Shown piece by piece: positions 2 to 54,700 of a stretch of DNA of 60,000 nt. Origin of the DNA: Lytechinus pictus. Lineage: Eukaryota. The notes under the pieces were generated by a model. The model searched no databases. It was not told the origin of the DNA and worked only from the letters and a program-made list of their open reading frames with translations. The position numbers and the translations under genes were made by a program. The stretch covers positions 48,982,001 through 49,042,000 of the forward strand of contig NC_087251.1 of assembly GCF_037042905.1 (NCBI RefSeq), given 5' to 3'. Every line of letters begins with the position of its first letter. The first letter of the stretch is position 1.

Positions 2-1591
2 TTCACGCAAGCACAGTACGAGGAAATGTATGGCGTGATGTTTAGGATGATGCAGATGATGCCATTCGGAGGAATTGGACAACCAGCTCCTCCATACTGC
101 AACCCTGCTGCCGCCTACGGTGGGTATTGCCCACCATGGGCTGGAGGCAGATATCCGCCACACTACCCTAACACTGTGGCCCCGCAAACCTCTCCCCAAG
201 GACCATGTGACTTGCAACATGGGGGTAGCAACCCTGTGTATCAAGGCGCTGGACCCCAAAGAGATGGACATGGAGGCCCAGTATACAGTGAAAATAGAAA
301 CACCACAAGGCCATCAGTAAGTCCTGGATACTTGGGGCTGCCAACAAGAAATCAGCCGCCCCGCGTCACCAGACTTACTTCGGCCTCAAGACCTGTGGTA
401 CCAGAATATGACGACAGAAGGCCCCCTTCTAGACCAACCTCTTTGCCGAAGACCATTTCGTTCGACGGCAAGGGAAGTTGGGCGGCCTTCTATTCAAAGT
501 TCCAACTTTACACCGAAAGACATGGCATGTCTGATGCAGACAAGAAATATCAGCTGTGTCTGGCGTTGGAGGCCGAAGCCAGTAAGTTGATGGCCCTCAT
601 CCAGGAGAGCAATCCAAATATCGCCTTCTCTGACTTGGTTACCAAGTTGGAGAAGCGGTTCGCTCTCCAGGAGGAGCCGGAAGTTACTCGGATGCAATTT
701 CAATCGGCTTTCCAACGCTCGGATGAAGACATAATCAAATGGGCAGACAGGCTTATGACACTTGCAGGTCAGGCCTTTGTAGGCCTACCTGACAAGTTCG
801 TCCAAGAACTTGTAGTGGCAAGGTTCTGCCAAGGTGCCCAAGACAAAGATGCAGGGCATCATGTCCTGACTTCTCGGCCTGGGACATTAGATGAAGCCAT
901 GACCAAGTACAAATGGTTTCAGTTTACCCAGAAGACCATGCAGAAGCATGGCCCTAGGCTGAGAAACGAAGTAAGGCAGCTCTCTGTAGGAGAAGATAAG
1001 AATGACCTCAGGGTACAAGAGTCGTCTCCTCCGGAAGCTGCCACCAAAGGAAATTCTAGCCTTGAGGCTAGAATCAGTGCTCTGGAGGCTCAGAATGCAA
1101 TGTGGGCCTCCAAGATGGATTCGATGGTTGCTGCAATCACGGATCTGTCTCGGAGTACTAAAGAACTTTTGTCGGTGTCAAGAGGCCAGCCGAGTTACTC
1201 CTCCGGCCGTGCCCCTGTCACACCTGAAAGACCAAAATATACCTCCGGCCGAGCTCTGGGAACACCGGACAGACCAAAGTATACCTCTGGTCGAGCTCCG
1301 GGTACATCAGACAGGCCGAGGTATACCTCTAATAGAACGCCGGATCGGTCAGAAGGAGGCAGAAGACCATCTTCGGGCCTTCCACCAACCGATCGGCAGC
1401 GAAACTTCGCAGGCTGCTTCAACTGTGGGGAAGAAGGCCATTTCAGTAGGGCCTGCCCCAGAGGGAGATCGCCTGCTCAGAACAGACGACTTAGGGCTGT
1501 CACCTTCGAGGAGGAGGGAAATGGACAGGGATCGGAGGAGATGGGGAATCCCCGATCCGATCACAGATCCCCACCATCTCCATTCCATTAA
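2..1591 (+). CDS. gag: Ty3/gypsy retrotransposon Gag (5'-partial), capsid-like region plus CCHC zinc knuckle
   Basis: 521-aa ORF, with the frame open back to the window edge. It has a capsid-like segment (FDGKGSWAAFYSKF...LEKRF...RFCQG) and the knuckle CFNCGEEGHFSRAC. Stop TAA at 1589-1591. Confidence 0.9.
   Translation, partial: FTQAQYEEMYGVMFRMMQMMPFGGIGQPAPPYCNPAAAYGGYCPPWAGGRYPPHYPNTVAPQTSPQGPCDLQHGGSNPVYQGAGPQRDGHGGPVYSENRNTTRPSVSPGYLGLPTRNQPPRVTRLTSASRPVVPEYDDRRPPSRPTSLPKTISFDGKGSWAAFYSKFQLYTERHGMSDADKKYQLCLALEAEASKLMALIQESNPNIAFSDLVTKLEKRFALQEEPEVTRMQFQSAFQRSDEDIIKWADRLMTLAGQAFVGLPDKFVQELVVARFCQGAQDKDAGHHVLTSRPGTLDEAMTKYKWFQFTQKTMQKHGPRLRNEVRQLSVGEDKNDLRVQESSPPEAATKGNSSLEARISALEAQNAMWASKMDSMVAAITDLSRSTKELLSVSRGQPSYSSGRAPVTPERPKYTSGRALGTPDRPKYTSGRAPGTSDRPRYTSNRTPDRSEGGRRPSSGLPPTDRQRNFAGCFNCGEEGHFSRACPRGRSPAQNRRLRAVTFEEEGNGQGSEEMGNPRSDHRSPPSPFH
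1516..1581 (+). promoter_or_regulatory. Programmed -1 ribosomal frameshift signal (slippery heptamer plus H-type pseudoknot)
   Basis: G_GGA_AAT at 1516-1522 is phased to the gag frame, followed by a 6-nt spacer. Stem 1 is GGATCGG 1529-1535 / CCGATCC 1552-1558. Stem 2 is GGAGATGG 1537-1544 / CCATCTCC 1574-1581. The -1 frame is open and joins the protease frame once the 1592-5700 insertion is removed. Confidence 0.8.
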
Positions 1592-4500: not shown

Positions 4501-5697
4501 AGTCTGGCTTTTAAAACACGGAAAACGGTCTAATTGATAGGCAAAATGAGAAATTAGATGGATTATATGTGGGTTCTGTTCTGAGAATTTTTTTTCAATA
4601 TTGGGACAATTTGACGAGCGTAATGGAGAAAAACACAGGACATCTCATTTTCAGCAGACGGTTTTCACTTCATTTTGCTGAAGAAAAACACACTAAATAT
4701 ATATACATGTATGTGTGATCAGATTCTGTTGGTCTGGAACATAACTACTCCAAAGGATATTAAATGCAACTGATTGACTATTAGGAGTTGAGAATTACAG
4801 TACTGTTATGATTCAAATTTAATAATTCATCATCTAAAATTGTAAATATAAATGAATTGATACCATAATTCAAGATACCATTTTATAATAAAAATATAAG
4901 CAATTAATAGTGACATTTGCTTGAATAAAGATAGCTTCATGAAATTCGTTGGATCTCCACCAGTGTGCTTTTAAATGGGAAGGCCCTCCGTGCAGGAGTT
5001 TACCTTTGTACGCAGATGTGGGTGTGGGAGTGGGTGCATCTGTTTATGCCCATGCCATATACGAATAAAAAATGTTAAAAAAGTGATTACATAATTAAAT
5101 CATTGAAGCTAATTATTTTCTTCCATTGATTGATAATCAATAATTTGACAGATCCCATAACAAAAATAACAAAACATGTACAAAACAAAAGGTACAAAAT
5201 ACAAAGAAATACATTAGAAATTCAAAAACAATAAAATACATTATTATTCACTGTGATATTATATTCTAAGGGCCGTACAATTATTTATAATGATGTAAAT
5301 GCTATTTGTACCAAAAATATAAACATTTGAGCTGAAATTATCAAATTATAGCATAATGATCCAAAATATGCATAAATTTGCATAATTAATTAGCCGCAAA
5401 CAAAAGTAACAAGTTTTCCCGAAAGGTACACGTATGTATGCAGGATTTTGGAGTATTCATGTCTGGGAAAGCGAATATAATTAAAGAACATTGTCGAAAT
5501 AATATTCTGAATTGTCAATTTGGCAGCCATTTTGTTTATGCAAATTAGGTGGTCAAAACATGAGAAATTAGCTTGGGAACCGATCTTATCAGATTCAGAA
5601 TATTTGAATTGTGTGAAATAGTCCGGTTTCCAACTTTTACCCCAAAATGCTTCTTAAAGTTTATATAGGCCTCTTTTTCCAGAATGGGTCTAGTCTA
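1592..5697. mobile_element. Non-autonomous long-TIR DNA transposon, Academ-like (TAG...CTA termini, 3-bp TSD)
   Basis: Ends are TAGACAAGACC and GGTCTAGTCTA. Imperfect inverted repeats extend ~680 bp (~1592-2280 vs ~4990-5697). TAA is duplicated at 1589-1591 and 5698-5700. No intact transposase. Confidence 0.8.
3950..4330 (+). mobile_element. Possible degenerate RTE-type LINE 3' fragment
   Basis: Conceptual translation FDTNCLRRILVLNW (~4140-4182) resembles the post-RT region of RTE LINEs. The rest is decayed. Confidence 0.35.
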
Positions 5698-5700
5698 TAA

Positions 5701-6254
5701 AGGACAGCCTCATGCCACAAGACCATGGTAGCTCACGGGCACCGGACTCACAAGCAAGTCCAGGGAGCCCAAAATTCTCTGAGGTAATAGATGTTCCTTG
5801 GAGGAATCCACCATGGCCACCAGACATTCCTGGTGAGGTTAAAGATCAAGATATTGAAGTAGTCATTTGTAGAATTATGTCTACTTCAACATTGAGTGTT
5901 GGGTTGACAGTTGGCAAAGAGCCCATTACATCTGTTTTGGACACTGCGGCAGCTGTCACCATTATATCAGATAGGCTATTCAAACGCCTCCAGCCTCGGC
6001 CGCCCATCCTTAAGCGTGTAATCCTTAAGGGGGCTGGCCGAGACATGAAAATGGACGGCATGGTGGTAGGGCCTATCAATATCAAGCTGGGTGCCCAAAT
6101 ACTCAGCGAGAAGATTTATGTAGCTCCGATAGCAGATGAGATGTTGTTTGGCGTTGACTTGTTACGAAAACACAATGCCAATATTAGCATCCCAAATGCT
6201 ATCTTAACTATGAATGGTGAAGACCTACCAATCATACAAAGAGAAGATCCATAA
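5701..6254 (+). pseudogene. Retrotransposon aspartic protease (pol N-terminal part), truncated
   Basis: Catalytic motif VLDTAAAVTIIS and C-terminal MLFGVDLL motif. Premature stop at 6254. Confidence 0.85.
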
Positions 6255-23100: not shown

Positions 23101-26100
23101 GTAGGGCAAAGACCACATGGAATATCCTTATATGATTTGACCATTTGATTCCATTGTGCTCCACATATATTTTAAAACAAAATGGTCATGTCAAGTGAAT
23201 GGAGTTTGTTAATAAATTCAAATTCATACTAGATTCTACCTTGGCTTAGCATTGGTCCAGCAGAAGAATGGTCCTGGAGCCAGGAATAAAGAAACCACTA
23301 CCTACCTGCATGATGGCATCCAGTACCTGCTAGAGCTCACAACCAAACAGGCTGAAACAGTGGAGAACAGGTGAGTGGGTATTTGACAACATGACTGATG
23401 CATAGCAACGGATTGTTATGGAAAATTAGTATTTGTAATAAAAATATGACAGAAATTCAAAAGTGCATCCCAAAAAGTATGAATTTCAGAGCTGAAGAAG
23501 AGGAAAAGAAATAAGAGTGGGCAAATTCGTTATTTCATAAGAACATAAGTGATATCATATGCATATGTAAACACATTTTCAAGTGCTGAATTGCACAATG
23601 TAGTGCTTGATATTTAAATCTATGTTCTATAGCTGAGGTTCAGAGTGAACCTCCCTGGGAGTTTTGGCAGTTGGTGACAGTGGAATGACAGATTAATAAA
23701 AATCAAATATCATTAATTGAGAAAATGAAATTTTTTGATGGAAAATATTATTTTTGGTAATGCAGCATACTAGTTAATTTGCTCTTTCAATGGTTAATTG
23801 GTAACTCTACTAATGGACATGTTCAAGAATGTTGGATAGATCAAGGTGGGAGAAATGGCTCAGAATTTCAGAATCCAAATTTTTGATAATGGTAAATTAC
23901 TCCTTTATACCTTTCGAGCTTCACATTGTTCTGGAAACAACCTGTATCATTGGCAAACTGTTGCTTCTTTCTTTTGCCTTCTGTTTCAGTTCCTCATGTG
24001 ACCTTCACTCAGAGGACCTATGGAGGACTTCTAGCGGCCAGCTTCTCAAGGGATGTATAGAACTAGGAAAGCTACTCAAGAAGACACCTATATCGGGGTT
24101 CCTCGGTGCTGCCGATGTCTTTCACAGGTGAGGATGAGATACGAGTGCAAGATCTTTTCTTAAGCATATCGTTAACAAAGGTAGTTTGATTGGTCAGCGT
24201 AGGTACTTGATATTACCTCCTTACACAGCAGAATTCCGCAGCTGTACAGGATTTTGGTTTATATTTTTGGCACATTTAACAGTTCCATGACATATGCTCC
24301 AGCTACAATTAACAGTACCCTAAACCTAACATAAAAAACCCTATGCAACCCTAACCCTACATCTTAGTAAAGCCTGGAGTAATTGTCGCAGGAGCAAATG
24401 TCGTGTCACCCATGAAACATGTTTAGACATGTTCAGAGAAGCAATAACAACAAATTTAAAATATTAGATGAATTTCATAATTTTGTAAAGAGGCAGGCAT
24501 AAAACTCACTTGTGTATTTAATCTTTGTCTGTATGTTGTCGAAGAGAAGACATGATGAATTCCTAAGTACTTCAGTAAACTTTGACTTTGATTATAATCG
24601 ATATGAACTTGGTGTTATGACCCATCTTCTATATCAAGTTAGACAAACATAAGAAGATGATAAACTCATGCATTACAAGGGGAATCACCAGTTGTATGAT
24701 CCCCCTAAAAAACATGCTGTATTTTTATTACAGTGCTGCCATTTTGGCAGGGCAGAACCTATGCACGCTGCCCTCTAGAGGCGACACCTACCAGTCAATG
24801 GAGTGGGTACTCCTTGACGTTCATGCCATCCTGCTAGAGATGCTGATGGAGAAAGATGCAGGGAATACCCCTTGGATTGCTCAACGATGTCAGCGTCTCT
24901 CTTCACTCATCAACTGCTCTACCATCCCACAGAGTCAACAGGTTCTCAAACTTCAGGAACAGGTAAGGACCAAATCAATTCCAGAAATCAAGGTTTTATT
25001 TTATCAATAGGTCACCTCTGTATATATAGAACCTCCATTTTTCAAAAAAAATTTAAGTCGGGAAAATATATAACAATGATCTATAGGAAAATCTATTCAG
25101 ATCCCTGGCAGAGGACCCGACCTATAGGTACCTAATTTACTTTGTTATGGAATAACAATGGCTTGTATGATAGCAGTAGTGAATGATCTGAATTTCTTTA
25201 CAACATACTTGTAATGCAGAGCTTCCAAGTCTCCCGGATCCTGCGGGAGAATACTGGATTTCGATCCAATCTCCCGTTCTCCCGACCCCATGCCAAAATC
25301 TCCCGGATAATCGTGATTTTTAGCTGTTAAATTGTAAAATTCATACAAACGACTGTTTTACGAGTCTAGCATGTTCAACTCTCTTTACACCCACGTGGAA
25401 CCTCCTTATCACATTTTCATTTTACCCAGTAGCTTTTACCAGTTTTTGTATAATCGTACATTGATTTCCAATGTAAATGAAGATAATTTTACCGAACGAC
25501 TGGTGAATTAGTCTAACAAGCAATTTTTTTCTGGTTCTGCAATGTGTGTGATGGAAACACTTCAGCGGCACTCCATGCACATGCCCCCCGACGCGTCCCG
25601 GCGCGGCCCTGCCTGGTCTCCAGCAGACCGCGCCGCGGCAGGAGGCTATGCGAGAAGGGAAGTCCACGAGCACTGCGATGCATTTTTCGGAAGCTTGTGT
25701 GCGCTTTATTTGAGCTGAAACTGTGGATCAACGATGGGTTACTACACTACTCAAAAAAAGTTAAGGACCACTTTTTAAAACGTACATAAAGATTTTATAC
25801 AAGGTGTTTTATTTCTGGAAATACCTCAGTACAACTGTCCTAAATGTCCTTAAACACGCTGTAATCAATTTCACGCATGGGTGGTTTCAGTTGTTGCACA
25901 ATGTCTCTCGCATCACTGCACATCCTGAAAAGTGGGCCCCGAGGGGTATCAGCTACCGACATGAAGTGGTAAAAACGAATGTCTGAGTGTCTTTCAGGCA
26001 GTTCAGTAACGAGTGTGACCACCTCCTGCAGCAATAACGGCTTCACAGCGCTGTCTCATGGAGCTGATGAGGCGATTGATGTCTCTGACGTCCAGTGCAT

Positions 26101-29100
26101 CCCATGCAGCCTCCAGAGCCACACCCAGCTGCTGCAGTCCAAGTGGATGGGCTTCGAGCTGCTCGAGACTCCTCCCCATCATGTCCCAGACGTGCTCTAT
26201 CGGGTTTAAGTCCGGGGACCTCGCTGGCCACTCCATACGCTCAATCCCCTGGCCCTCAAGGAACTCGGTCACCACCCTAGCTCGGTGGGCACGGGCATTG
26301 TCATCCATGAAAATGATGTTTTGTCCCACATTTTCTGCAAATGGCACCACTATAGGTTCAAGGACCTCATCCCTGTACCTCACTCCTGTCATTGCTCCCC
26401 CTGGGACCACGTAGAGACGAGTACGGTTGGCGTAGGTGATGCCTCCCCACACCATGACACTGCCTCCCCCATAACGGTCATGTTCTGCAATACAGGGGTC
26501 TGCAAATCTCTCTCCTGGTCGCCTCCAGACTCTCGAACGTCCATCATTGTGGTCAAGGGAAAATCTGCTCTCATCTGTGAACAGAACTCTACGCCATTGC
26601 TGTCTGGTCCATCTGACATGCTCCCAGGCCCAGTTGAGACGAATTCTTCTGTGAGCAGGGGTGAGTGGGACACACTGAGCTGGCCGTCTGGCATGCATAT
26701 TGGCTCTGTGAAGTCGGTTACGGATTGTTTGAGTGGAAACAATCATTCCAGTTGCTGCAGCGAAGTCATTGTTGAGGCGGCGTGCACTGTGAAAGCGGTT
26801 GCGGAGGCTGAGATTCGTCAAGTAGCGATCATCTCTAGGGGTTGTCGAAACTGGTCGGCCACTGCGGGGTCTCTCGGAGTATAGCCCTGTCTCTCGGTGT
26901 CTTTGATTTGCTCTGCTAATGACACTGTGTGACACGCCCATCATTCTGGCTACTCTTCGCTGACTGAGGCCATCTTCCAGCATCCCTAGGGCTCTGGCTA
27001 CATCTGTTTCACTTAGGTGGTGTCTTGGCATTGCTGTTGTAGGCAAGTTGTTGATTGTACAGACTAAAGACGGAAAATGCTTTGGAAGACACTTGTCTTA
27101 TGGCCCACTGCAATGATGCCAGAGACATCATGAAAGAACTGCATGTGTGAAATTGATGTCATTGTGTTTGATGGCATTCTGGACAGCTGTATCTTGGCAT
27201 TGCTATTGTCAGCAAGTTGTTGATTGTAGAGATAGTGCACGCCGCCTCAACAATGACTTCGCTGCAGCAACTGGAGTGATTGTTTCCACTCAAACAATCC
27301 GTAACCGACTTCACAGAGCCAATATGCATGCCAGACGGCCAGCTCAGTGTGTCCCACTCACCCCTGCTCACAGAAGAATTCGTCTCAACTGGGCCTGGGA
27401 GCATGTCAGATGGACCAGACAGCAATGGCGTAGAGTTCTGTTCACAGATGAGAGCAGATTTTCCCTTGACCACAATGATGGACGTTCGAGAGTCTGGAGG
27501 CGACCAGGAGAGAGATTTGCAGACCCCTGTATTGCAGAACATGACCGTTATGGGGGAGGCAGCGTCATGGTGTGGGGAGGCATCACCTACGCCAACCGTA
27601 CTCGTCTCTACGTGGTCCCAGGGGGAGCAATGACAGGAGTGAGGTACAGGGATGAGGTCCTTGAACCTATAGTGGTGCCATTTGCAGAAAATGTGGGACA
27701 AAACATCATTTTCATGGATGACAATGCCCGTGCCCACCGAGCTAGGGTGGTGACCGAGTTCCTTGAGGGCCAGGGGATTGAGCGTATGGAGTGGCCAGCG
27801 AGGTCCCCGGACTTAAACCCGATAGAGCACGTCTGGGACATGATGGGGAGGAGTCTCGAGCAGCTCAAAGCCCATCCACTTGGACTGCAGCAGCTGGGTG
27901 TGGCTCTGGAGGCTGCATGGGATGCACTGGACGTCAGAGACATCAATCGCCTCATCAGCTCCATGAGACAGCGCTGTGAAGCCGTTATTGCTGCAGGAGG
28001 TGGTCACACTCGTTACTGAACTGCCTGAAAGACACTCAGACATTCGTTTTTACCACTTCATGTCGGTAGCTGATACCCCTCGGGGCCCACTTTTCAGGAT
28101 GTGCAGTGATGCGAGAGACATTGTGCAACAACTGAAACCACCCATGCGTGAAATTGATTACAGCGTGTTTAAGGACATTTAGGACAGTTGTACTGAGGTA
28201 TTTCCAGAAATAAAACACCTTGTATAAAATCTTTATGTACGTTTTAAAAAGTGGTCCTTAACTTTTTTTGAGTAGTGTATTATAATTACACCCAGACTTT
28301 TAGGAATAATTTTATTGACAATCCTGAAGAACAGAAGCAAAGTGGAGATTTTCTTGGCTACTTTCACTTGGGTTGATCGGATTCGAACATTTTCTCTTTC
28401 GTGAGTGAGCTGGCCTGGCGCGAACCAAGGGAGCTCCGGCCTGCTTCGCGGGCCGGAGCTCCCTGGGTTAGCGTGGCGCTGGCTGGCTGTGCGTGCCTTG
28501 CAACAAAAAGGCAATTTTTTCAGGAATCCCTCGGCCCTCAGAGACTTTAAACAGGCCACATATAAGTCTTTACACTTACAGGGCCAGGCAAGCTCATCTA
28601 CCACTACTGCAGCCCCTTCCCCCTCTGGACAATAAAGGTATTTTCATGTTGAATGCCTTCTTTTATGAATCATGTTATGTTCTACTGTATTGCCTGAAGC
28701 TTGAAGTATATTTTTAGTCAATGACAATTCATGAAATCTCTCTAATGTGCATTTAAATCTATGTGCCAAAAGTTTTGATGGTTTAGACAGCTGTCAGATA
28801 CTATCAAATGTTGTTTCTTAATGTGTTTTGCTACCCAAAACTCCCGTCCGTGGGACGTTTCGCCGCGCGCTCCCTCACAAAATCATACCTCTGCAAAATC
28901 TTCCAGATTCTATCATCCCAATGTTGGCAGCTCTGGTAATGTGAGTTTGCTTTTCAGGACCAAACACACGCCCATGATGTACCGTGATTCATTTTTTGCT
29001 ATTGAAAGCTACATAATTTCCTTCTTAATCAAAGATATCCTTGAATATTTTCAATTCAAATTATAACTTCTGGCAATAGGCTCGTAGATACGATTAAATC

Positions 29101-32100
29101 TCTCATTGAGTTGATATTTGCTTCTATTTCCATTAAAAATTGATTCATTAAATTAAAATGATGAACCTTAAACATTATTTGTTTTATATTTCTTCCTCTC
29201 AGACATGTCAAAAGGGAGTGATAGCCCAACCATGTAATAGCCAAGCTCTGTGTCACCTGGGCACCTCCCAGCTAGCCATGTACGAGAATGACCCGACCTC
29301 TGACCTAGGAAAGCAAGCACTCCTTGATGCTAGGTTGTCCTTTAGGGCAAGCATTGAGAAAGAGGGCAAGCCAAGTATAGGTGGTGACCTGCCGACTCAG
29401 ATGACAGGTGATTAGATCGTTTTTAATTTTCTTTTTAAAAAGCTATCCATTGTAGGATACAACCATGCATATTGTAGCCTTGTAGCTCATTGAGAGATCT
29501 CCAAGCCACTGCCCCCAATGGCTGGCTTATTTAATGAATTTTTATATCAAAGAAATTTATAGATTTACTCAGTTTCCAACTTACTTTAACCATAGCCTGG
29601 AGGCCTCTGAGCTAAAAAGAAAGGCACATCTAATGAATTATGTGGTGTTTTGCTATGAGATTATTTGTTACAAGACATTCTTAAAGGCCTAATGCCCTCT
29701 ATTGAAAATAACAAATATAGAAAAGACACCACATTGGTCTCTAGAGAGGACTATTTAGAGTTTTATCTGTAATCCTTGGAAAACAATTTCTTAAATTGAA
29801 AGAGACACCAAGAATATTGATTCCTTGTTCTGGGGAGACGTTCCCCTATCTGGTGTGGTTTGTGGCATGTTTTATGATACAAGATTCAAGGTAGATTAGA
29901 TTCTCTTGTTATATTAGAAGTATTCAATTTTATCTTCCTTCTTCCCCCCCCCCCCCCTTCCTGATATTCAGAACAAGGTTGGTGGCAGGAGAAAAAGAAG
30001 AAGGAAGAGGCGGCAGCAGCCAGTAAGGCAGCACCAGCAGATAAGGGTAAGGGTGTGGCCTCCAAGGCTGCCCCAGCTAGGGGAGCACCTGCAAGGGGTG
30101 CACCAGCAGGGAGGGGTACTACTACACCAAGGGGTGCAACCAGAGGCGGTCCAGCAGGTGGGTTTATTGTCTAGTTCTATCATGAATATTGAAATAGTAC
30201 ACAGCAAGGACATGCATTACATTTTCTGACTTGCTATTATCAATGCAGAGCTGCCAACCATTACGTTTTTTCATTCAAATTACGGCATTATGGTTTTTCT
30301 TTTCAAATTACGTTTTTTGACAATTTTGATAATGTGTGTACATAATTGTATGTATGTGTAGTGCGTGTTGAGCCCGAGATGAGCCTGGTACTTGCGCGTG
30401 CGTAGTCGCCCGCCGGCCGGTTTTCCAACTCACTTTAATAATTTGATAGTGCGCGCGTACATACGTTTATAGTTGAACATGCGAGCGGCATGCATGGCAC
30501 GAATCGCGATGTATAGCGACTGGTAAATACGTCTGTAAGGATGATGACGTCATCCAAGATGGCAACTTACGATGACCAACGAAAGGATCGAGGATGATTA
30601 TGTTTTGATCATCATTTGAAAGGAAATAGCAGTAACTGCGGTCTAAGGTACGATATTTCTGAATTTTATATATCTTATCTTAAATTTGCATGTAATTTCT
30701 TTCCTATAAAGTGATGTTTTATTTAAAAAAAAACGATCCTAAAATCGGATTTCCGCCGAATGATAGATCTAACGCAACTGCTAATACGTTGTCTTTACGC
30801 ACGGGCCAACACTCTGTCTGGTTATTATTCATCGACTCGTATCAAACAAATACGATAAATTCGGCTTTGAAAAGACCGGGAAAGCTCTTCATTGTCCCCT
30901 GAAGTACTAATTCTGGGTGATATTCAACATTTATTGATAGTTTCACATGATTTATACTAGAGAGATGTCCTACTGCTTTTGGAATTCTTTTAAAAAGTCG
31001 GCACTGTAGCATTCAGTTTAGCAGGAATGGGAAGATTTCTTCCCCGGTTCTGGCGGCCTAGATGTCTGCTCTATAGTGCTGTCACTGCTGGGGATGATTG
31101 AGTGTGCGTGCAGTGTGATTGAGGCTGAGCTGTGTACATCGTGAAGTGATCTACGATGGGACTTTTGTGGAATGATTTCAACTTCTAGATCTATTTGAAT
31201 TTTAGATTAGATTGATTTATGAATAATTTTTTTATATTTGTGGAATGTTATATATGTACTTCCATTTTATGACACTTTAATTTTAAAGGTTACTGTTTGG
31301 CAAAAACAATGTTACTTGGGAAGAGAAGTCTGAATTGATGTGAACTTTTATTTTATTTCTCTTAGTCTACAATTTGGTAGTTTGTCAGGAAACTCAACAC
31401 AAAACAATGTATTATTTTAAAAGTGGAAAGGTAGCCCCAGAAAAACGGTGCCCTAAAAATGTTCACCAGAACTGATTTTGGTGCCCCTGAAAGAATTTTT
31501 TCTCGACAGATCTTTACTCTGATAAGCATCATAAGGCATGTAAGGAAGTGCCGGAGTAGGTTGCACTACAAAATTAAAGTCCTACTTGTCTTTTTGAAAA
31601 ATTTGCCTTGGTGCCCTTTTGACTAGAATAAAAGTGGCCTTCATGCCCTTAAGCATGGCGTTGATGCCCCTTGAAATTTTGGGGCATCCAAGGCCACTTT
31701 GCCGGTTGCCCCAAGCTGAAAGTGCCCTTTTAAAAATGGCCTTTCCCCTCTCAATTCTTAATTCGAGCCCTGCTACTGACTTAATTTAAGTTGGTAGATT
31801 TTGTCAAAACAGGCCCAAGACTAAGGGTCCAATTTGTAACACTAGGTTACTTAGCCCAGACTAGGCCTAGAGATTTTTTTTTTTATTGTTCACTGCATAC
31901 ATACTTTTTACATTGGATATTTGTCACGTGTGGTTTTAAGGTTCGTTTTAACATATTCCTTTTTTTTGTTGGAAATTCCTTTTTTTGGCCAGAATGATTC
32001 CTTTTTTTGCTTGCACAAGGTTGGCAGCTCTGTCAATGGCAACACTAGAATTGGGCCTTTGAAATTCACTGTTTTCATTTTTATGACTACTTGTAATTGA

Positions 32101-45798: not shown

Positions 45799-48700
45799 TC
45801 ATATTCTGACAATTTCCACTGCAGTCCTCTTCCCGGCTTTGTTATCGTTCGCCTCATCATTCTTTGGACCAGTATCTTTTATCACTAGTCTAGCATAAGT
45901 CCCGCCGACTTGACCGCTGGTCAACAGGCCAGGATTGATGCACACAGCACCTTCAATTTCCTTGTAAAGAATAGAAAATAAATGGGGAATTTGTTATGAA
46001 CCAGTTTCAATCACCATTGCAAAACTGATGTTATACCACTCTTGTATAGAACTTATATCATATAATCCTTTTCTTTATTATCTAAATCATACCTCTTAAG
46101 GTTTACCTTACTTTCTCAAGGACCTAGATCAAACAGATATCAAGTTGAATGTAACCCTTACAGTTGATTGAACAAGTTTAGATGTAGTATATCATCCAAC
46201 ACTCATCTGCAGATCAGTAATCAATTGGAAGACATTGATATGTGATTTCATTTTCTAAAATCTTATTTCTCATGATAATAAATAAGTTTGAAACCCATCT
46301 ACCACCCCTGTCCCGCCTGCCTACCCCCCCCCCTCCCCACAAAAAACCCCTACTTTCCTGTTTGCTTACCTTCACAAAGTAGCGCAACCGAGACGGGCAG
46401 ATGAAGATGTGTGGAGCGCACCCCATCTTTCCGTACTGGGAGAATTTTTCGTAGTCTATCGGAATCTCCTCGGACGGCGGGTATAGAGGGTAGAAGTTCT
46501 GTTGGCTGAGGATGTGACGAACGAGACGGCCCAGACGGTCGGATGAACCAGGAGGACTGAAAACACAAAGATTCATTTATTTTAAATCCTTGTTTCTAAA
46601 GGATTTAGCAGAGAATGAGTTTGCCATGTACTTTTCAACAATTAATGAATTCTGCAGGATTTGGAACTTTTGATTGCAAATTACACCAAAAAATAAGCAT
46701 GAAATTTATTTCATGAAAAACAATGTCTAGGGAACTGCATGTTAATATTAAATGCTAGGTATGTACCAATATGAGTGTCCTTGTTTCTGTCGTGAACCCT
46801 CTCAGTCTATCTTTATTCTTTAGCTGCAGCCAACCCTTCATTTTGTGCTGGATCACCGATGCATATACAGCTGATGCCCTGCTATTGCAGGAGCTGTGGA
46901 GGCTGCTGAATAGCCAGCCAGCCAGCTAAAGGTAGCTAGCATACACGCATCGTGGGCGCAAGGCCGACCGCGTGACCACTGCGAACGGATGTTTCATAGC
47001 AGTGGTGTTCGGAGCAAGGACTAACGGCTTCTGAGCGAAACATAGTATTTGGGGAACAAACATTGAGGTCTGAAAGGGGGGACTTGCCTCAACCACCCTG
47101 TATCACAGATCTAGAATACAATATCCGATAATCATTATCGCAATACTGTCCTAGGAAGAAAGGACAATCTTGAAAAGCCATCCATGATATACAGTGACAT
47201 CATATTTGCAAGTTTTTCCTTTGGGAGGTTGTTCTTTATCGACAAGTTCTATCCTGAAGTAAATACTTTTCCATGACACAGAAAAGTTCACAGAATTCAT
47301 GGAACTTTATGGAAAACACAATTTTTCAGGTCACAAATTTGAATTCCGAAATGTAAAGTGAATATCATGACATCAAAGCAAATCCAATAAAACAAATTTG
47401 TGCATCCGTGGAAAATCTGCCCATCAAACCTCTTTGCAGCATTTAGCATGTGTTCACCATGCTTATTAATCTGAATACAGTGCAGATTATTATCACGAAA
47501 TGTTGCTTTTTCCTTAGCTTTTTCCTTTTATAATTACTTAATCATATATTTGTACGTCACCAAACATCACAGAGTTCAATGATTTAGAACAACAAAGAAA
47601 ATGGAATTGGTTGTTTAGATCTCAAAAGAACATGAAATTATTTGTTTAGAACACAGAAGAATGAAGAACCACTTGTTTAGAACACTGAAACACATGGAAT
47701 TACACTTTGGAAAATGAAAAACTGAGAACTTTACTAAATTCTTACCATGAGATCTCTTCTCGACTGAGATGGAATACGATGTCTGTTGAGGTAGATGCTA
47801 TATTGATTCCGTTGATATTAATCATCTCTGGCTCAGCCACAAAATGCACTCTCTATAAAATATGAAACAAACAAGGAAAATATAATAAATCACCTATCTT
47901 GTTAGGTTTCATTCATACTCTTTGGTCTTAAAACACACTTGTAATGTTGCAATGAAATTTTCTACATCTTTGCAATGATGTGTGATGTGTAGATGCAGGA
48001 TTGGCAGGTGTAAGAAAAATGTGGTGGTAAATACTGGTAAATACCACCTCGATAATTTTTTAGGAAAATGAGAAATAGTTGAAAACACAGGGAAATACTA
48101 TGCAATATACCCTTGGAATATCTTCAGGTATTGCCCAGGTGCTTGTCAAGCATATTCTAGCATTTCCCTGTACCTCCCTGTATGTTCATCTTAGGTACTT
48201 CCAAGCATTTACAAGGTTTTTTTTTCCAGTATTTCCCACTGCGGCAGGAAATACCTAAATTGCCAACCCTGCATAGATGTAAAGTCTGCAAAGAGGTTCT
48301 GAGAAGAATAAAGGACTCTAAGTTCAAGTTCATCTTTATTTTAGAACCTGAAATCATTTCCTCCTTTTACCTTTGGTTGGTTCTTGATGTCATTGTAAGG
48401 TGGTTGAGGATAGATGAAGTGATGATGAGCATCTCTCAAAGATGGCTGGAAGATCAGTTCACAACCAACACTGCAGCAAAAATTAAAATCATTTACATTT
48501 TTTTGTTAATTAATCACTTAATTAGCAAATCTGCAAAAGTGCAAATCAAAGGAAATGATGCAATACGCCAATAACACTTCCCTTTTGAGATAATGCAGGG
48601 AAATAAAATTCTATACAAAAAAAAATTGTTTTTATGATATCATAAAATAATCATCCAAGTCATTAAAAAACATGGACTGGGTGTTTGAAGGAAATCCAAT

Positions 48701-51700
48701 AACAATATTCTTTCAGACTTTAAAAAAAAATACACATGACCAAATTCCACAAAAATTAATTTAACATCATTCATGTATTTATGTTTGATATACAACAAAC
48801 CATTACCATTTCCAAGTTAAGAAGTACAACTTATCGGCATTACTGTACACCACTGCTCTGTGTTTTAAGTTTTATGTAACCAATGAGTTTAGGTTATATT
48901 GATACTTCGTTTTGAATTCTTCAAGGGAGCACCTTGCTAAATAAACTTCTTGAGCTGCTACCCCCTTTTATCTTTTGTACATTTTATATTGAAATATCTG
49001 AAAATAAATGAATTGCATTGAAATCATATCAGTCCCACACGAACCCAATGCTTGCCTTAACTAAGGTAAATAATTTTGTGGGACCTCTTTAATGATATAG
49101 GTCTACAGATATCTGTAAGTCCAAGCTATTTTATCAGCTCGAGCAGATTCAACTTGGGTACTACTTTGACTGCATTACACAAAGTAGCAACTACTTGTCT
49201 TTCAGCTACATACAATCATGGTGTTTGCATTCAAATTCAGAAGACTTTGGAAATTCATCACCTTATCCATCTTTTTTAACTATCTGATGGATATGCAGAT
49301 GGGCATCCAGAAAAAAAAACAAGCTTTCATATTTGAAATATCCTGAATGGACTTTTAATTCCTTGTATCTCAAAATTTAGAAATTTCATGGCAGCTAAAA
49401 ACAAGCTGTATTTTAGAATTACGACTGGTGTCAACCTAGTATTGTCTGTAAACAGTCTCCTAATTCCTGTAGAGAACTCATTCTAGGCAAAAAAAAAGGT
49501 TCCCACTTATGTCATAATTCTAAAATACAGATTTGTATGAGCTGTCCTAAAATTGTTTTGAAGTTTTAGATAAACAACCATCAAGGATATGCAATAGCCA
49601 TAAATAATCAAATTTGTTAATACATTGCATCATAATCTGACTCACTTTTCTGTTTTCCTAATGGTTGCCTGTATGATATCATTGAAGACCTTGTCATAAC
49701 TCTCACCAAGTGATCCATCCTAAATAAAGATTTGAAAAAAAAAAAAAAAAAAAACTAATAATTTCAATGCTCTGAAATTCTCTCAAATATTACCCATATC
49801 AAATAAGAAAACTGTTGCTGAGTGACTTTGGATCGTGTGTGCGTGCTACAAATCTTACAATATTATTGTAAGGGGGTGTTCCCAAAGATTTGAGTCTTGA
49901 CTAAAAAATTACACTTATACGCCACTTTGAATGAGGTATATATTGCATAACAGCATTGGTTACAATCATAGGACCTGCTCTACTGTGTAATTTATTAATA
50001 TTAAAGGAGAATGAAACCCTTGAAACCAGCTGAATCCATATCAAAGAGAAAAATCAAAGAAACATATTGTTGAAAGTTTGAGGAAGATTGAATGAATAAT
50101 AAGAAAGTTATGAGCATTTGAATATTGAGATCACTAATGCCATGTAGATCCTCCCATTGGCAATGCGACCAAGATCTGTGATGTCACACACGTGCAACTC
50201 CCTCATTACTTTAGTACTTATTTCACTTATATTCTCACTTTTATAGATTCTATCACAAGGTGAGGTGTTCTCTTTATGAGAGGACACGTACAGAGGTTTC
50301 ACAACATTATATCATTGATGAATCGTGTCATATGATTAGAAGTGAGCAAAAAGAGATGTTTTGAGGTATATTTTCAGTGTCCAAAAGGGGAGAGTTGTTC
50401 ATCTGTGACATCATAGATCTTGGTCGCATTGCCAATGGGAGGATCTCCATAGCATTAGTGATCTCGACATTCAAATGCTCATAACTCTTCTATTGCTAGT
50501 CCTATTTTACTCAAACTTTTGTTGATCTTATTCTTTGATTTTTCTGCTTTCACAAAAGCTAACTTGCTCCAAGAGTTTCATTCTCCTTTAAGGATAAAAT
50601 ATCATGTGTGTGGCACTAAATCATAAAGTCTTAACTTATTGACCCCCCCCCCCCCCCCCAAATACCTTTAAGCCATTAGATTCACACATCTCTCATTTAA
50701 TCTTCAAGAAAAGTGGGGGTAATAACAATAATTATACATGAGATCTATTTGCAAAACATTTTGAAAATAGTTAGAAAGATGATAAAGGAAAAAATAAGTG
50801 TTAAAAGGAGAGGTGGTCTTCGTGGTGTTACTCTGCATAACCCCTGCATTTCATTTGAGAAATTAAAAATGTTCACTTTTATGTCATGCCCGCCCCCTCC
50901 CCCTTCAAAATATCCTCATACCACTCCTGCTTGCAATATTCACATTCAAATTCTTTTGCTAAAAAGATGCAGAAAGCCAATATTTTGAAAAAAACCTTTT
51001 AATTTTACCGACATCTCAGTCCCATGTCATAAAGAGTGGTTATAGTATCAAATGTACAATTGCTATTACACCATTACTTTCAGCCAATCGGATTGACAGA
51101 TTTCAGTAGCTTTCAACTGTTATTGCAAATTTGTTATTACAACAAGTTTTGAGAAATGGGTCCCAGTTCACCATGAATGTGCTAAGCTATTTTACTGATT
51201 CCTTTTCTTACCTTGATTTGGCTGTGTTCAACATCAACAAAAGGCCCAAGCTATGAACAAGAATGGAAAAAAAATTACATCAATGGTATAAATAGAATTA
51301 GCTGTTTATTTCCACACAACCTATAGCACAGATAATTCTATGTTTACTTGAAGGGTACAGTATTCATTTATCAAACTCAAGTGTGCTGTAATGGTAATGA
51401 AAATGATAAGAATCATACAGTTTTGTTTACATTTGTCAGCTGGTGCTCTTCATAAAATCCTGCTTTCGTTGTTTATCTTATACCCGGATCTAAAGGTCAT
51501 TGTCTCAATCTGATGCAAATTCTATGATTCTCATGTGATACTGAGACATACACCGATCCTCATTCAATACACACAGAGCTGAAAATTCAAGAACTTCCAG
51601 AACAGTAGTTACGAAGTGTAAAATTTATCCCATTGTTTAAGCAAGTCCTATAATAATTATTGACAAATGACGTTGTTGGGGTGTTTTTTCTGAGTATTTA

Positions 51701-54700
51701 TGCAAGGTAACTTAAAGGGGAATCCAACCCAAATAAAAACTTGTTTTTATAAGGAAAAGAAAAATCAGACAAGTTGATAGGTGAAAGTTTGAACAATATT
51801 GGACAAACAACAAGAAAGTTATGAATTTTTAAAAGTTGTAAATATTGGTAATCACTATACCCATGGAGACTTCAAATTGGCCGCATATATGATGTATTAG
51901 TGATGTAAGGCAAGGACTACTCTTCCATATACTCCAATACATATTATGGCTAAAATTTCATTTTTCCCAAAAGTTTTATTTCAAATTATATTTTTCTTTC
52001 ATGGGGACATAAAACAATATACTACCTGGGTTACATTTAGATTACTGCCCCAGGGGAATGGGTACTTGGGAGAAAACCACAAATCCCTGATAATAAAGTA
52101 CATGGCCTATGGGAAAGTTGGCCTTGCCCCTTTTCATAATTTACTTACCCAGTTGCCAATTTGACATTTACATAGTATTAGTGATCTCAATTTTAAAGCA
52201 GCTATAACTTTCTTATTGCTCGTCCGATTTCTTTCAAACTTTTACCATTCTGTTTAATTTATTTTTCTCCTTCCCAACACAACATTTTATGGCCAAGGCT
52301 GGATTCCCCTTTAATTCATGTAAGATATGATTTGCAATTAAAATCTTTGAAAATGCCAAGGTGATTTACATTTGATCATAAAATGGAATGTGATAACTCA
52401 ATATTTTCAGTTTTATATTTGAAAATCTTGATACTGTTTCATACACAAAAAGAATTCTATACAATAAATAAAAAAATAACAATGACAAAAAATAAATAAT
52501 ACTACTACTACTAATAATAATGAAAATAATGATAACAACTGAACTAACAATAAGAATGCCACAACAATTACAAAGCTCTTAATACAATGTTTCTAAGTGC
52601 TGCATACTAGTACCCTGGCTTCAACCTTGATTGGGGACTCTAGTATTCCAGTAATTCCTTCCTACTCGGTTGCAAGTACCTATCTATGTGACAGGAGTTG
52701 CTCGAGTGCAAAGAAGAAATTGGGTCACAGTTACAACCTCAAATGATAACAATGATTCTCACCAAAATGCAAGCATCTGGTCTGGTCTTCTTGATAACCT
52801 TGATAAGATCTTCCAAGGGTTCTAAGCTGAGGTTATCAGAGGTACTGAACGGACCCGCAGCAAGCAATAGATGAAGGTTTCCTGTAGCTTCAGGGAAGTC
52901 TGTTGATTCAAAGTCACCCCTCACACCCTGTATGTCAAAATACATGAAAAGGGCTTGGTCTCATTATGCTTTATTTAAAGCTAAATGCCAGCTGTGGTAG
53001 CAATCTCAAAATGAGTCCAAACAGAATCCAATACAATGACCACCTTTGTGTTTGTAACCTAGAAATAACAAATGTGCCAAATGATTCTGGGGTGTTTTTT
53101 TTTGCAGTATTCCTCAATTCCATTCTTTTCTTGAAATCTCTGTATCACTTTATGTAATATCAGTATGTTTACATGCATATCTTTATAATGACTCTTTTTT
53201 GTTTTGACAATCTGTTATTATGCCCACATGCATTTCTCTGTACATTTCTTTTTATCGGAATTGAAAATAAATGAGTTGAATATAGAAAAATGTGTCATTG
53301 CTGAGAAATCGAGAAATGAGAAGAGGTATGCTAGCATTCCAGCCATATGTTGGGTCTTTTTTTTTTCAAGCACTAATATTTGATACACAGTCCCACATGT
53401 GCACACATAAAGAGCACCATCTCTACTCCCTGGGGAGTATCCTGGCCAGGCAACCATTTATCGGTGCACACATGCCAATCTAATCACATTGACTTTCACA
53501 TCCTACCAGCATCCATTTAACACCTGGGTGGAGAGTGAAAAACATGGCGGGTGGGATTCGAACCCTCGACCCTTGGTTTAAGAGTCAAGTGACTCAGCCA
53601 CTAAACCATGACACCTCCACAACACCATGTGTTGGTGATCTTCAGTGTGATTGTTTTTCAGCTTAGATTTCATGATTTCAAATAATTAGGTTTAAATGTT
53701 AAAGGAAAATGAAACTCTTGGAGCAAGTTAGCTTTTGTGAAAGCAGAAAAATCAAAGAATAAGATCAACAAAAGTTTGAGTAAAATAGGACTAGCAATAG
53801 AAGAGTTATGAGCATTTGAATGTCGAGATCACTAATGCTATGGAGATCACAGATGTCACAGATGAACAACTCTCCCCTTTTGGACACTGAATATATACCC
53901 CAAAACATCTCTTTTTGCTCATTCTAATCATATGACAAACGATTCATCAATGATATAATGTTGTGAAACCTCTGTACTTGTCCTCTCATAAAGAGAACAC
54001 CTCACCTTGTGATAGACTCTATAAAAGTGAGAATATAAGTGAAATAAGTACTAAAGTAATGAGGGAGTTGTACGTGTGTGACATCACAGATCTTGGTCGC
54101 ATTGCCAATGGGAGGATCTACATGGCATTAGTGATCTCAATATTCAAATGCTCATAACTTTCTTATTATTCATTCAATCTTCCTCAAACTTTCAACAATA
54201 TGTTTCTTTGATTTTTCTCTTTGATATGGATTCAGCTGGTTTCAAGGGTTTCATTCTCCTTTAATGTACCATAAACTAGATCGATCATGATGTGATGGCA
54301 ATTTAACCTTGATTTTAAAGCCGTCTAATGACATCATTGTTTGTTGCAACTTCATTCCTTTAGCTTTAACAGTGATACCACATAGAATTGAAAGAAGAAG
54401 AAAATTCAACTAGAATGGTCCCTAAATATTTGCTTTCTCTGGAGAAAAAAAAATCACATTTGAAAAAGAGAAATCCCTAATTTTGTCTGATAAATTACAT
54501 TCCTTCTTTAAAACACGAGAAAAATACTATCTTCTACAAGCAGATATTTTTTCTTTCTATTCCAATTTATTCCACATTATAAAAAAGGGTGTCTTTTGCA
54601 ACATACTATGGCTATTATTGCTATTTTTGATTTAGGAGGTAAACCACCATTATACTGCATGCGTTTTTCTGATTTAAGCATCACTCTACTCGGCAACACA

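Follow-up and report, generated by a model that had tools for sequence, protein, structure and literature searches.

A palindromic Tc1-like transposon with two 3' ends in an intron of a Lytechinus pictus gene, one of about 145 such units in the genome

The window analysed here, a stretch of 60,000 nucleotides from Lytechinus pictus, contains at positions 25743-28279 a TA-flanked unit of 2,537 bp, in which a Tc1-like transposon is joined to an inverted copy of its own 3' part, all within an intron of a protein-coding gene. The first-pass annotation saw in it a "killer allele" for its family. The question is whether the unit is indeed such a special silencing locus, or an ordinary product of the family to which it belongs. 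To our knowledge, the first recognition of an active transposon by its host is best documented for inverted duplications derived from DNA transposons, and the triggers that we know of, Mu killer and the Ac composite insertions, are single plant loci. The contrast is with one animal genome that holds about 145 palindromes of one near-identical family, with dozens of independent junctions and amplified lineages. The features of the locus are the following:

24730..24959, + strand: host coding exon 14 (tblastn; contigs X1 record 1 and X3 record 13)
24960..29199, + strand: host intron 14, with 3 nt of ambiguity at its boundary; the unit makes up 60% of it
25743..25744: left TA target-site duplication, adjoining the terminus CACTACTC, an arrangement shared by 29/29 family loci checked
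25745..25940, - strand: 3' terminal inverted repeat (TIR), left copy, canonical positions 1703-1898
25745..27232, - strand: long arm and spacer, canonical 411-1898, with the 3' TIR, the whole transposase gene and 201 bp of leader
26003..27031, - strand: Tc1-like DD34E transposase ORF, open, 342 aa
26789..27233: unpaired spacer of 445 bp, with ORF codons 1-81, the remaining leader and a 1-nt filler T at 27233
27233..27234: palindrome junction, canonical 411 / filler T / canonical 855
27234..28277, + strand: short arm, an inverted second copy of canonical 855-1898, with ORF codons 82-342 at 27234-28019 and the second 3' TIR at 28082-28277
28278..28279: right TA target-site duplication
29200..29404, + strand: host coding exon 15 (tblastn, spliced contigs)

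Inverted-repeat detection delimits two arms of 1,049 nt each, at 25740-26788 and 27234-28282, which are 445 nt apart and differ at four positions. Three of the mismatches lie inside the element (26155/27867, 26459/27563 and 26746/27276), and the fourth, 25742/28280, lies in the flank, beyond the TA. The element proper, at 25745-28277 with termini CACTACTC...GAGTAGTG, has arms of 1,044 bp with three mismatches: these measurements, and that of the spacer, agree with those given in the first-pass annotation. Chance cannot account for an inverted repeat of 1 kb with 99.7% identity.

Comparison with canonical copies of 1.9 kb makes the anatomy explicit. Both ends of the unit are the 3' end of the element, and the 5' 410 bp, which hold the 5' TIR and the greater part of the repeated leader, have been swapped for an inverted copy of the 3' 1,046 bp; that the native 5' end had been replaced was proposed from the window alone, and holds against full copies of 1,900 bp. 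The proposed TA duplication around the whole unit is also found, at 25743-44 and 28278-79. The long arm ends at canonical position 411 and is followed by the filler T, after which the short arm runs from position 855. Together, the long arm and spacer are 99.7% identical to the canonical copy L005 over 1,490 bp (4 differences), and the short arm is 99.8% identical to it (2 differences). The leader sequence left in the spacer carries a 44-nt repeat in two copies, 27020-27063 and 27189-27232.

The minus-strand ORF, which had been described as an intact DD34E transposase, is open over 342 aa. It matches the Pfam families HTH_38, HTH_29, HTH_23 and HTH_Tnp_Tc3_2, all above cut-offs (a paired-like helix-turn-helix region is present), and DDE_3 at 3.2e-19; its alignment to the catalytic domain of SB100X (5cr4) is gapless, with E=3.6e-28. 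D153, D244 and E279 form the catalytic triad, with an interval of 34 residues separating the last two. Three substitutions, A20D, V96M and R136W, separate the ORF from that of L005.

The canonical architecture comes from 14 full copies of 1,900 bp and one of 1,734 bp, among 30 loci returned; the 342-aa ORF is kept by 14 of these 15 copies. Their 5' and 3' TIRs share 84% identity along 198 bp, with no difference in the outer 36 nt; this length, the one property compared, fits ends of the IR/DR type, with two transposase-binding repeats per TIR. A TA is present on both sides not only at the 29 family loci checked, but at 33 further palindromic units. The family is one of very young 1.9-kb Tc1-like DD34E transposons of Lytechinus pictus. 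Efforts to establish this species as a genetic model use transgenesis with Minos, a Tc1/mariner element, and the accessible part of their description mentions no endogenous elements (PMC11361634); an apparently active endogenous Tc1 family is thus of practical interest.

Does the unit exist elsewhere? A 36-nt pattern across the 27233/27234 junction has exactly two matches in the assembly of 811.7 Mb, one here and one at C7:40028870-40028905. The one additional copy is 9 Mb away on the same chromosome and occupies an unrelated TA site. Over their 2,537 nt the two units show 3 differences; each has TA on both sides, and there is no similarity between their flanks; two variants limited to the long arm are common to both. 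The first-pass annotation called the unit still mobilizable, a claim that receives indirect support from this near-identical unit at an unrelated TA site, and from other junction types with 27 and 15 dispersed copies. Mobility is shown by the distribution of the copies; from there we infer the enzymatic step.

A census of the family used motifs specific to each TIR, with at most one mismatch allowed. The 3' motif has 425 matches in the genome and the 5' motif 135, against 0 for the reversed-pattern controls; these counts suggest about 145 3'-3' palindromic units next to about 135 canonical copies. Pairing was established on the first 100 matches listed for the 3' motif, which form 38 convergent pairs and 24 singles: all of the 33 pairs that were fetched are TA-flanked 3'-3' palindromes, and the singles that lack a 5' motif are palindromic as well (3/3). 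The 5' motif yields 0 convergent pairs, that is, no 5'-5' palindrome, among 100 listed of its 135 matches.

The 46 palindromic units examined are 1.4-3.1 kb long, carry one or two full transposase ORFs in 32 cases, and all end exactly at element termini with TA. They display 29 junction types, with overlaps of 0-3 nt or fillers of 1-72 nt. Two types have been amplified, 288/608 to 27 copies, spread over at least 12 contigs, and 215/644 to 15 copies. Within these lineages, copies differ by 2.4 per kb, which is comparable to 1.8 per kb for canonical copies. The two arms of a same unit differ by 2.99 per kb, against 1.43-1.80 per kb between canonical copies, and this higher divergence could come from age, error-prone synthesis or methylation; units L011 and L024 have 0 differences between their own arms, which indicates that arms are born identical. 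The census shows that the process is recurrent and one-sided, and that about half or more of the family copies are 3'-3' palindromes. The locus of the window is a routine, still mobile by-product of its family, rather than a unique silencing locus.

The host gene encodes a Cadherin-like beta-sandwich/TPR protein, similar to L. pictus LOC129264268. By tblastn, an L. pictus protein of 1,137 aa is spread over 20 coding exons of the + strand, of which exon 14 stops around 24959-24980 and exon 15 begins at 29200. Evidence from sequencing runs consists of Logan contigs from four runs: in each of two runs, one contig joins 24959 to 29200, skipping 4240 nt with GT..AG borders. Protein mapping and spliced contigs both place the unit in intron 14, as had been annotated. 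The host gene is thus expressed and its intron 14 spliced out, so the intron must be transcribed wherever the insertion is present; no contig of the four runs shows the unit inside a pre-mRNA. Co-transcribed with the gene, the unit would yield an RNA that folds into about 1 kb of near-perfect double-stranded RNA, much as first suggested: folding of the + strand predicts a minimum free energy of -2403 kcal/mol, with 1044/1046 arm positions paired with their mirror partner. Dicer, ADAR or piRNA pathways would be expected to act on such a hairpin.

One may then ask whether read-through of the intronic palindrome produces hairpins and small RNAs that repress the whole Tc1 family in trans, in the manner of Mu killer. 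We consider this rather unlikely. The palindrome does sit in a transcribed, spliced gene, its inverted duplication spans 76% of the CDS (codons 82-342) together with the 3' TIR, the hairpin is predicted to be near perfect, and the available texts on Mu killer (PMC3440606) and on Ac composite insertions (bioRxiv 10.1101/2020.01.07.897926) provide plant precedents. There is also a weak hint in CpG transitions, which are 33/173 of the rare variants of palindromic arms and 0/23 of the canonical ones (Fisher p=0.016), or 18/148 against 0/23 with singletons alone (p=0.14), the canonical sample being small and picked as best matches, and shared variants being counted more than once. Yet the locus is one among some 145, and the lineages of 27 and 15 copies, at 2.4 per kb against 1.8, were amplified alongside canonical copies, of which 14/15 retain the ORF. 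Amplification of the family went on once palindromes existed, which speaks against an efficient "killer", and the notion of a special allele is not supported. Contigs of the family occur, moreover, in RNA-labelled runs, where carry-over of DNA is possible.

Mu killer belongs to the Mutator superfamily and, as the available text describes it (PMC3440606), exists as one locus, in a plant that has RdDM; its hairpin RNA is proposed to come from read-through from a flanking gene, and its silencing was shown genetically. The L. pictus unit, on the contrary, is an animal Tc1 that has a whole ORF, is one of many and has moved, and its role in silencing is putative. With the Ac/Ds composite insertions it shares the inverted duplication of a transposon, generated by the transposon's own activity. 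According to the accessible part of that study (bioRxiv 10.1101/2020.01.07.897926), Ac composite insertions are transcribed from transposon or flanking promoters into double-stranded RNA, with 21-24 nt siRNAs and heritable silencing; composites arise by alternative transposition, involving two nearby hAT termini and re-replication, and include flanking DNA, whereas the L. pictus units are bounded exactly by element termini and TA.

An unlikely reading, at the scale of the family, is that two-3'-ended mobile copies are made at high frequency, transpose at least as well as their parent, and each encode a kilobase anti-transposase hairpin: the RNAi trigger would then scale with activity, and a self-limiting burst-and-crash would have been caught mid-process in a deuterostome laboratory model. 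Whether transposon silencing in a deuterostome is triggered by long hairpin RNAs can be addressed directly in this family. In C. elegans, sequences of the Tc1 family form fold-back RNA or DNA that feeds RNAi, and Dreyfus and Emmons reportedly described palindromic Tc1-related repeats there in 1991. The nematode double-stranded RNA, a product of read-through of Tc1, comes from the short TIRs of ordinary copies, and is not known to derive from kilobase arms of coding region.

We return to the explanation that we prefer: the unit is a genuine 3'-3' palindromic Tc1 derivative of the "411/855 type", most likely made by an error of break repair and moved by the family transposase. A canonical copy would have suffered a double-strand break within or at its 5' part; repair synthesis would have switched strand or template, copying the element's own 3' part in inverted orientation; end joining would then have sealed the ends, leaving the one filler T. 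The 5' TIR and 212 bp of leader would be lost in the process, and two identical 3' TIRs gained, after which the family transposase could cut and paste the whole unit at TA sites. We infer this formation from the anatomy of the junctions, whose signature is common to three routes: a one-ended break that folds back, with transposition afterwards; synthesis-dependent strand annealing (SDSA) in situ, with a TIR switch; or the joining of two broken sister copies. At C7:21.21 Mb, one arm of a unit had broken; the other arm served as the template for its replacement, copying went past the junction and took in 23 nt of flank, and end joining followed, which we read as repair synthesis in action. The palindromes form a natural series of break-repair products in which the mechanism of formation can be read.

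A close parallel is Goblin, a MITE of Aedes aegypti derived from the Tc1/mariner element Ozma. As far as its available description goes (PMC3814204), both of its sides are the right (3') end, inverted, with a 1-nt T scar, and its proposed origin is gap repair by SDSA with a template switch from left to right TIR, followed by microhomology-mediated end joining (MMEJ). The L. pictus unit likewise has both sides of its junction taken from the 3' end in inverted orientation, a single-T scar, and more than one copy. In contrast, Goblin is described as a single non-coding type of 213 bp, with 54-bp TIRs and 15 copies (PMC3814204), while the L. pictus family has at least 29 junction types and about 145 units that equal or outnumber the canonical element; and the present unit, at 2,537 bp with an open ORF of 342 aa, is a precursor-like coding form rather than a MITE.

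A neutral template-switch model predicts 5'-5' palindromes, and a putative end preference would be the sole explanation of their absence. The 3' end could be the preferred end of the transposase, hence the one-sidedness, by analogy with Mos1, Mboumar-9 and Sleeping Beauty. In vitro, a pair of right ends (RR) raises the activity of Mos1 26-fold over that of the natural LR element, a pair of left ends (LL) lowers it 50-fold, and the trend is the same for Mboumar-9, where LL is preferred, and for Sleeping Beauty (PMC4505599). The unit resembles those constructs in having two copies of one end; they are laboratory constructs with short inverted repeats, whereas the preference in L. pictus is putative. 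The pairing of preferred ends, as in Mos1 RR, would explain both the exclusive 3'-3' pattern and the amplified palindromic lineages. Whether a Tc1/mariner element that has two preferred ends transposes more than its parent is a question that the palindromes put to a natural test.

Could two insertions have produced the same structure, with no error of repair synthesis? A 5'-truncated copy would have landed head-to-head beside or inside a full copy, and a deletion would have followed. Tc1 elements do insert at TA and often hop locally, and in units L036, L047 and L048, whose long arms begin at canonical positions 5, 9 and 21, nearly the whole 5' TIR is kept beside the inverted partial copy. However, the present join connects internal positions 411 and 855 through a filler T, with neither TIR terminus nor TA duplication; 5'-truncated copies are not inserted by cut-and-paste transposition; and at least 29 independent events would be needed, always 3'-3'. 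This makes the scenario very improbable.

Least credible is an assembly artefact, in which a chimeric or mis-joined long read would have put a false inversion in an ordinary Tc1 copy: no contig of the four runs spans the junction at 27233/27234, or those between flank and unit at the locus, and contigs reaching 27232 continue as canonical, but the identical junction recurs at the second locus between unrelated flanks with common arm-specific variants, 46/46 units end exactly at termini with TA, two of the 29 junction types have 27 and 15 dispersed copies, and a fold-back read would not yield arms that differ at 3 sites. Since contigs collapse rare variants, their failure to bridge the junction neither confirms nor refutes it. 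In run X1, one contig goes from 25738 directly to 28298; it crosses a diverged paralogue of the flanking repeat, one that is free of the unit.

The palindromic Tc1 copy at 25743-28279 belongs to a very young family in which half or more of the copies are mobile 3'-3' palindromes of many independent origins, and this family-level pattern is a more interesting result than the locus itself. The parts of the unit are as follows.

25740-26788, left inverted arm, 1,049 nt
25743-25744 and 28278-28279, the TA on each side of the unit
26003-27031, minus strand, open frame of 342 amino acids
27233, a filler T between the arms
27234-28282, right inverted arm, 1,049 nt

A repeat search places the arms 445 nt apart; compared base by base they show 4 mismatches, and matching stops at both arm ends. 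The termini of the element are CACTACTC...GAGTAGTG. One mismatch falls in the flank, leaving 1,044 bp with 3 mismatches within the element proper, the very figures of the first-pass annotation. The minus-strand frame, announced there as an intact DD34E transposase, is indeed open: it contains the Pfam domains HTH_38, HTH_Tnp_Tc3_2 and DDE_3, aligns with the catalytic domain of Sleeping Beauty SB100X (E=3.6e-28), and has the triad D153, D244 and E279, with a spacing of 34 residues between the last two. It differs from L005, an ordinary copy of the element, by A20D, V96M and R136W, and is putative as to activity. The right arm holds codons 82-342 only.

In order to describe the ordinary element, the assembly (811.7 Mb) was searched with 25743-27233. 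There were 241 matches; 40 out of 298 candidates were scored, and the best 30 loci taken. Half of these 30 are ordinary, or canonical, copies: 14 have a length of 1,900 bp, including the TA, and one of 1,734 bp. From its 5' end, a canonical copy has a terminal inverted repeat (TIR) of 198 bp, about three tandem leader units of 166-169 bp, the transposase frame at 612-1640, and a 3' TIR of 198 bp; identity between the two TIRs is 84% overall and complete over the outermost 36 nt. The 342-amino-acid frame is found in 14 of the 15 loci. In canonical positions, the palindromic unit reads from 1900 down to 411, then the filler T, then from 855 up to 1900: the 5' TIR and 212 bp of leader are absent, and in their place the 3' 1,046 bp appear a second time, inverted. 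The earlier structural interpretation, with both ends being 3' ends and TA around the whole unit, is thus right.

Within the leader (canonical 199-611), every tandem unit repeats the start-codon region and has a stretch with about 73% similarity to the inner TIR; in the window, two copies of a 44-nt leader repeat lie at 27020-27063 and 27189-27232, and one tandem unit fewer is found in a canonical copy (L026) and in a palindromic one (L035). One contig from the RNA library of sequencing run X16, with a joint 25778>27521, contains the outer 36 nt of a TIR, the motif TGTGTGT that continues the 5' TIR, and then canonical position 1142. It is an internally deleted ordinary derivative, so simple deletion products of the family exist too.

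The first-pass annotation proposed a search for other copies of the 27233/27234 junction. A pattern of 36 nt spanning it occurs exactly twice in the genome, in the window and at C7:40028870-40028905. Over 2,537 positions the units at these sites show 3 differences, and they have in common two variants restricted to the long arm, at canonical 1184 and 897; both are flanked by TA, and their flanks have no similarity. The observation of the palindrome is thereby confirmed, and the same junction at a second TA site with unrelated flanks supports, through the distribution of copies, the claim that the unit can still be mobilized.

Public sequencing runs were also consulted over 23900-30200, as Logan contigs of runs X1, X3, X16 and X9. 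No contig of these four bridges 27233/27234, and those that reach 27232 continue as the canonical element; since contigs collapse rare variants, this is uninformative either way. One X1 contig, of depth 303, joins 25738 to 28298 through 37 other letters, and is read as a diverged paralogue, without the unit, of the high-copy repeat at the insertion site. Four A>G or T>C differences on the unit (26459, 26626, 26746, 27867) were considered as A-to-I editing and rejected: they are the canonical bases at sites of variants private to the unit. Clustered A>G differences are absent on the unit in the contigs of the four runs, a type of data unable to show editing.

How common are such palindromes? 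A 33-nt motif specific to the 3' TIR has 425 occurrences in the genome (212 forward, 213 reverse), and a 34-nt motif specific to the 5' TIR has 135, with at most one mismatch allowed and no occurrence of the reversed patterns used as controls. If a canonical copy has one of each, and a palindrome two 3' motifs, these counts imply about 135 canonical and about 145 palindromic units. The first 100 3' hits in the list, on contigs C1 to C3, fall into 38 convergent pairs, implying units of 1,420-3,116 bp with 31 different lengths, and 24 singles, 17 of which have a 5' motif within 2.3 kb. Each of the 33 pairs that were retrieved forms a 3'-3' palindrome between two TAs, and the surrounding DNA is unrelated from one to the next; the remaining five pairs were already among the best 30 loci. 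Three out of three singles without a 5' motif are palindromic as well: two are complete units and one is truncated. No 5'-5' palindrome was seen: among 100 listed of the 135 5' hits, inspection by eye gave no convergent pair within 4 kb.

A full-text search of literature outside subscription journals did not turn up any account, for sea urchins or another animal, of Tc1 copies that are 3'-3' palindromes of kilobase size. As a class, these palindromes belong with right-right fold-back derivatives and with inverted-duplication hairpin loci, both already known kinds. Runs X9-X15, from four other organism codes (B to E) and marine or echinoderm metagenomes, contain 0.25-0.39 of the words sampled from 25749-27232. 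Run X9 has a 1,498-nt family contig with only 4 differences from the window, and the host exons have no cover in that run. The explanation could be that the organisms are close relatives, that the runs are contaminated, or that the transposon was transferred horizontally.

The junctions can be compared over 46 palindromic units, 13 from the best 30 loci and the 33 retrieved pairs, leaving out a segmental duplicate (L017, of L016) and a unit that is part of another locus (L023, of L024). We name a junction by the canonical position that ends the long arm and the one that starts the short arm, the unit of the window being of type 411/855. There are 29 types: the long arm ends anywhere from 5 to 718, the short arm starts anywhere from 523 to 1735, and the scars are overlaps of 0-3 nt or fillers of 1-72 nt. 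Five types recur, namely 288/608, 215/644 (of which L030 is a deletion derivative), 245/1109, 568/697 and 411/855. In the whole genome there are 27 copies of the 288/608 junction, spread over at least 12 contigs, and 15 of the 215/644 junction. Pairwise divergence is 2.41 per kb among six 288/608 units and 1.80 per kb among 14 canonical copies, values similar enough to place the amplification of palindromic lineages at about the time of that of canonical copies. At least one 342-amino-acid frame is present in 32 of the 46 units, nine of which have two, and 14 have none. The 288/608 type (for example L006, L011, L018, L053 and L061-L063; the two complete units among the singles are also of this type) is the most amplified. 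Its short arm begins 4 nt upstream of the ATG, which yields two complete head-to-head transposase frames around a loop of 320 nt.

Within units, one arm diverges from the other by 2.99 per kb (120 mismatches over 40,119 bp), above the 1.43 per kb that separates canonical copies over the 3' kilobase (91 pairs); methylation, age or error-prone repair synthesis are possible sources of the excess. Comparisons of arms between different units were set aside because of indels (mean 71).

Two units, L011 and L024, have no difference between their own arms. The founders of the two large lineages were thus born with identical arms, which points to copying from the same sequence, whether on the same strand or in a sister copy. 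In the window's own assembly, one locus, G000:C7:21210623-21215712 (L064 3624-8712; also L023/L024), consists, in order, of a partial 215/644 unit, 23 nt of the right flank in inverted orientation, a complete inverted unit, and the flank itself. We read this order as a short arm that broke at 1061, the other arm being copied through the junction, the 3' TIR and 23 nt of flank before end joining. Among the 46 units, true inverted duplicate flanks occur only there, a 13-nt match at L014 being a TA simple repeat.

We propose that a canonical copy would break in or at its 5' part, that synthesis would then change strand or template and continue on the 3' part, and that end joining would seal the repair, giving the junctions observed. 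This model has also been put forward for Goblin, a MITE of Aedes aegypti: its junction has, on both sides and in inverted orientation, sequence of the right end of Ozma, a Tc1/mariner element, and carries a scar of one T (PMC3814204). The variant routes would be (a) fold-back of a one-ended break followed by transposition, (b) gap repair in situ (SDSA) with a switch of TIR, or (c) joining of two broken sister copies. All three lead to one and the same junction signature and microhomology, which do not tell them apart; the identical arms seen in L011 and L024 speak for a template of the same sequence and no more.

A neutral switch would yield 5'-5' units as well. Mariner and Tc1 transposases prefer one end: in one study, activity in vitro rose 26-fold over the natural element when Mos1 carried two right ends and fell 50-fold when it carried two left ends, and the behaviour of Mboumar-9 and Sleeping Beauty was similar (PMC4505599). 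Should the transposase of this family, by analogy, favour the 3' TIR, it would mobilise and amplify 3'-3' units, and 5'-5' units would be nearly inert or never integrate.

The first-pass annotation also suggested that the hairpin silences its family, as a killer allele. At the level of prediction, the RNA of the plus strand does fold as supposed into about 1 kb of double strand, with a minimum free energy of -2403 kcal/mol and 1044 of 1046 arm positions paired with their mirror partner. The anatomy matches that of the maize Mu killer (PMC3440606) and that of Ac composite insertions, reported to produce dsRNA, siRNAs and heritable silencing (bioRxiv 10.1101/2020.01.07.897926). An excess of CpG transitions gives a weak hint of epigenetic targeting: rare variants occur at 1.65 per kb in palindromic arms, 33 of 173 being CpG transitions, versus 0.93 per kb and 0 of 23 in canonical copies, a baseline of 13-14 copies that is small and was picked as best matches. 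As a proxy for methylation, the contrast is suggestive for all rare variants (Fisher p=0.016), and not for singletons alone (p=0.14). However, the large number of such units, the intact frames of most canonical copies, and the continued amplification of both kinds at about 0.2% divergence speak against an efficient killer, and a killer allele as a single special locus is unlikely. Silencing of the family by the hairpin stays a hypothesis beside the reading of the unit as one of many mobile palindromes.

The unit was said to lie in intron 14 of a protein-coding gene. An exon-sized frame with a Cadherin-like domain led to a protein of 1,137 amino acids, "uncharacterized protein LOC129264268 [Lytechinus pictus]", which matches at about 100% identity 20 coding exons of the plus strand, from 11136 to 35357; the unit sits, as said, between coding exons 14 and 15, its transposase frame antisense to the gene. 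Spliced contigs of two 'organism A' runs (X1, 2,016 nt; X3, 1,734 nt) have the joints 24123>24730, 24959>29200 and 29404>29969, the second skipping 4,240 nt between GT and AG. These joints show that the host gene is expressed and that splicing removes the intron which, in this assembly, carries the unit; the source animals of the contigs may or may not have the insertion.

Other features of the neighbourhood are the following.

24322-24532, 25166-25740 and 28283-28963, other high-copy repeats in or near intron 14, with contig word depths of 250-1,579; the unit is inserted into one of them
28419-28473, a 26-nt near-palindrome
46217-55219, minus strand, exons of a gene for DNA polymerase alpha subunit B (POLA2-like), with matches to DPOA2_OB (3.7e-29) and DNA_pol_E_B
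2-1588, plus strand, an open frame of 529 amino acids with PNMA/gag-like and zinc-knuckle matches
5694-6251, plus strand, a frame of 186 amino acids with weak matches, near or below Pfam cut-offs, to retroviral-type aspartyl proteases

The last two frames belong to a retroelement or gag-derived gene upstream of the host gene.
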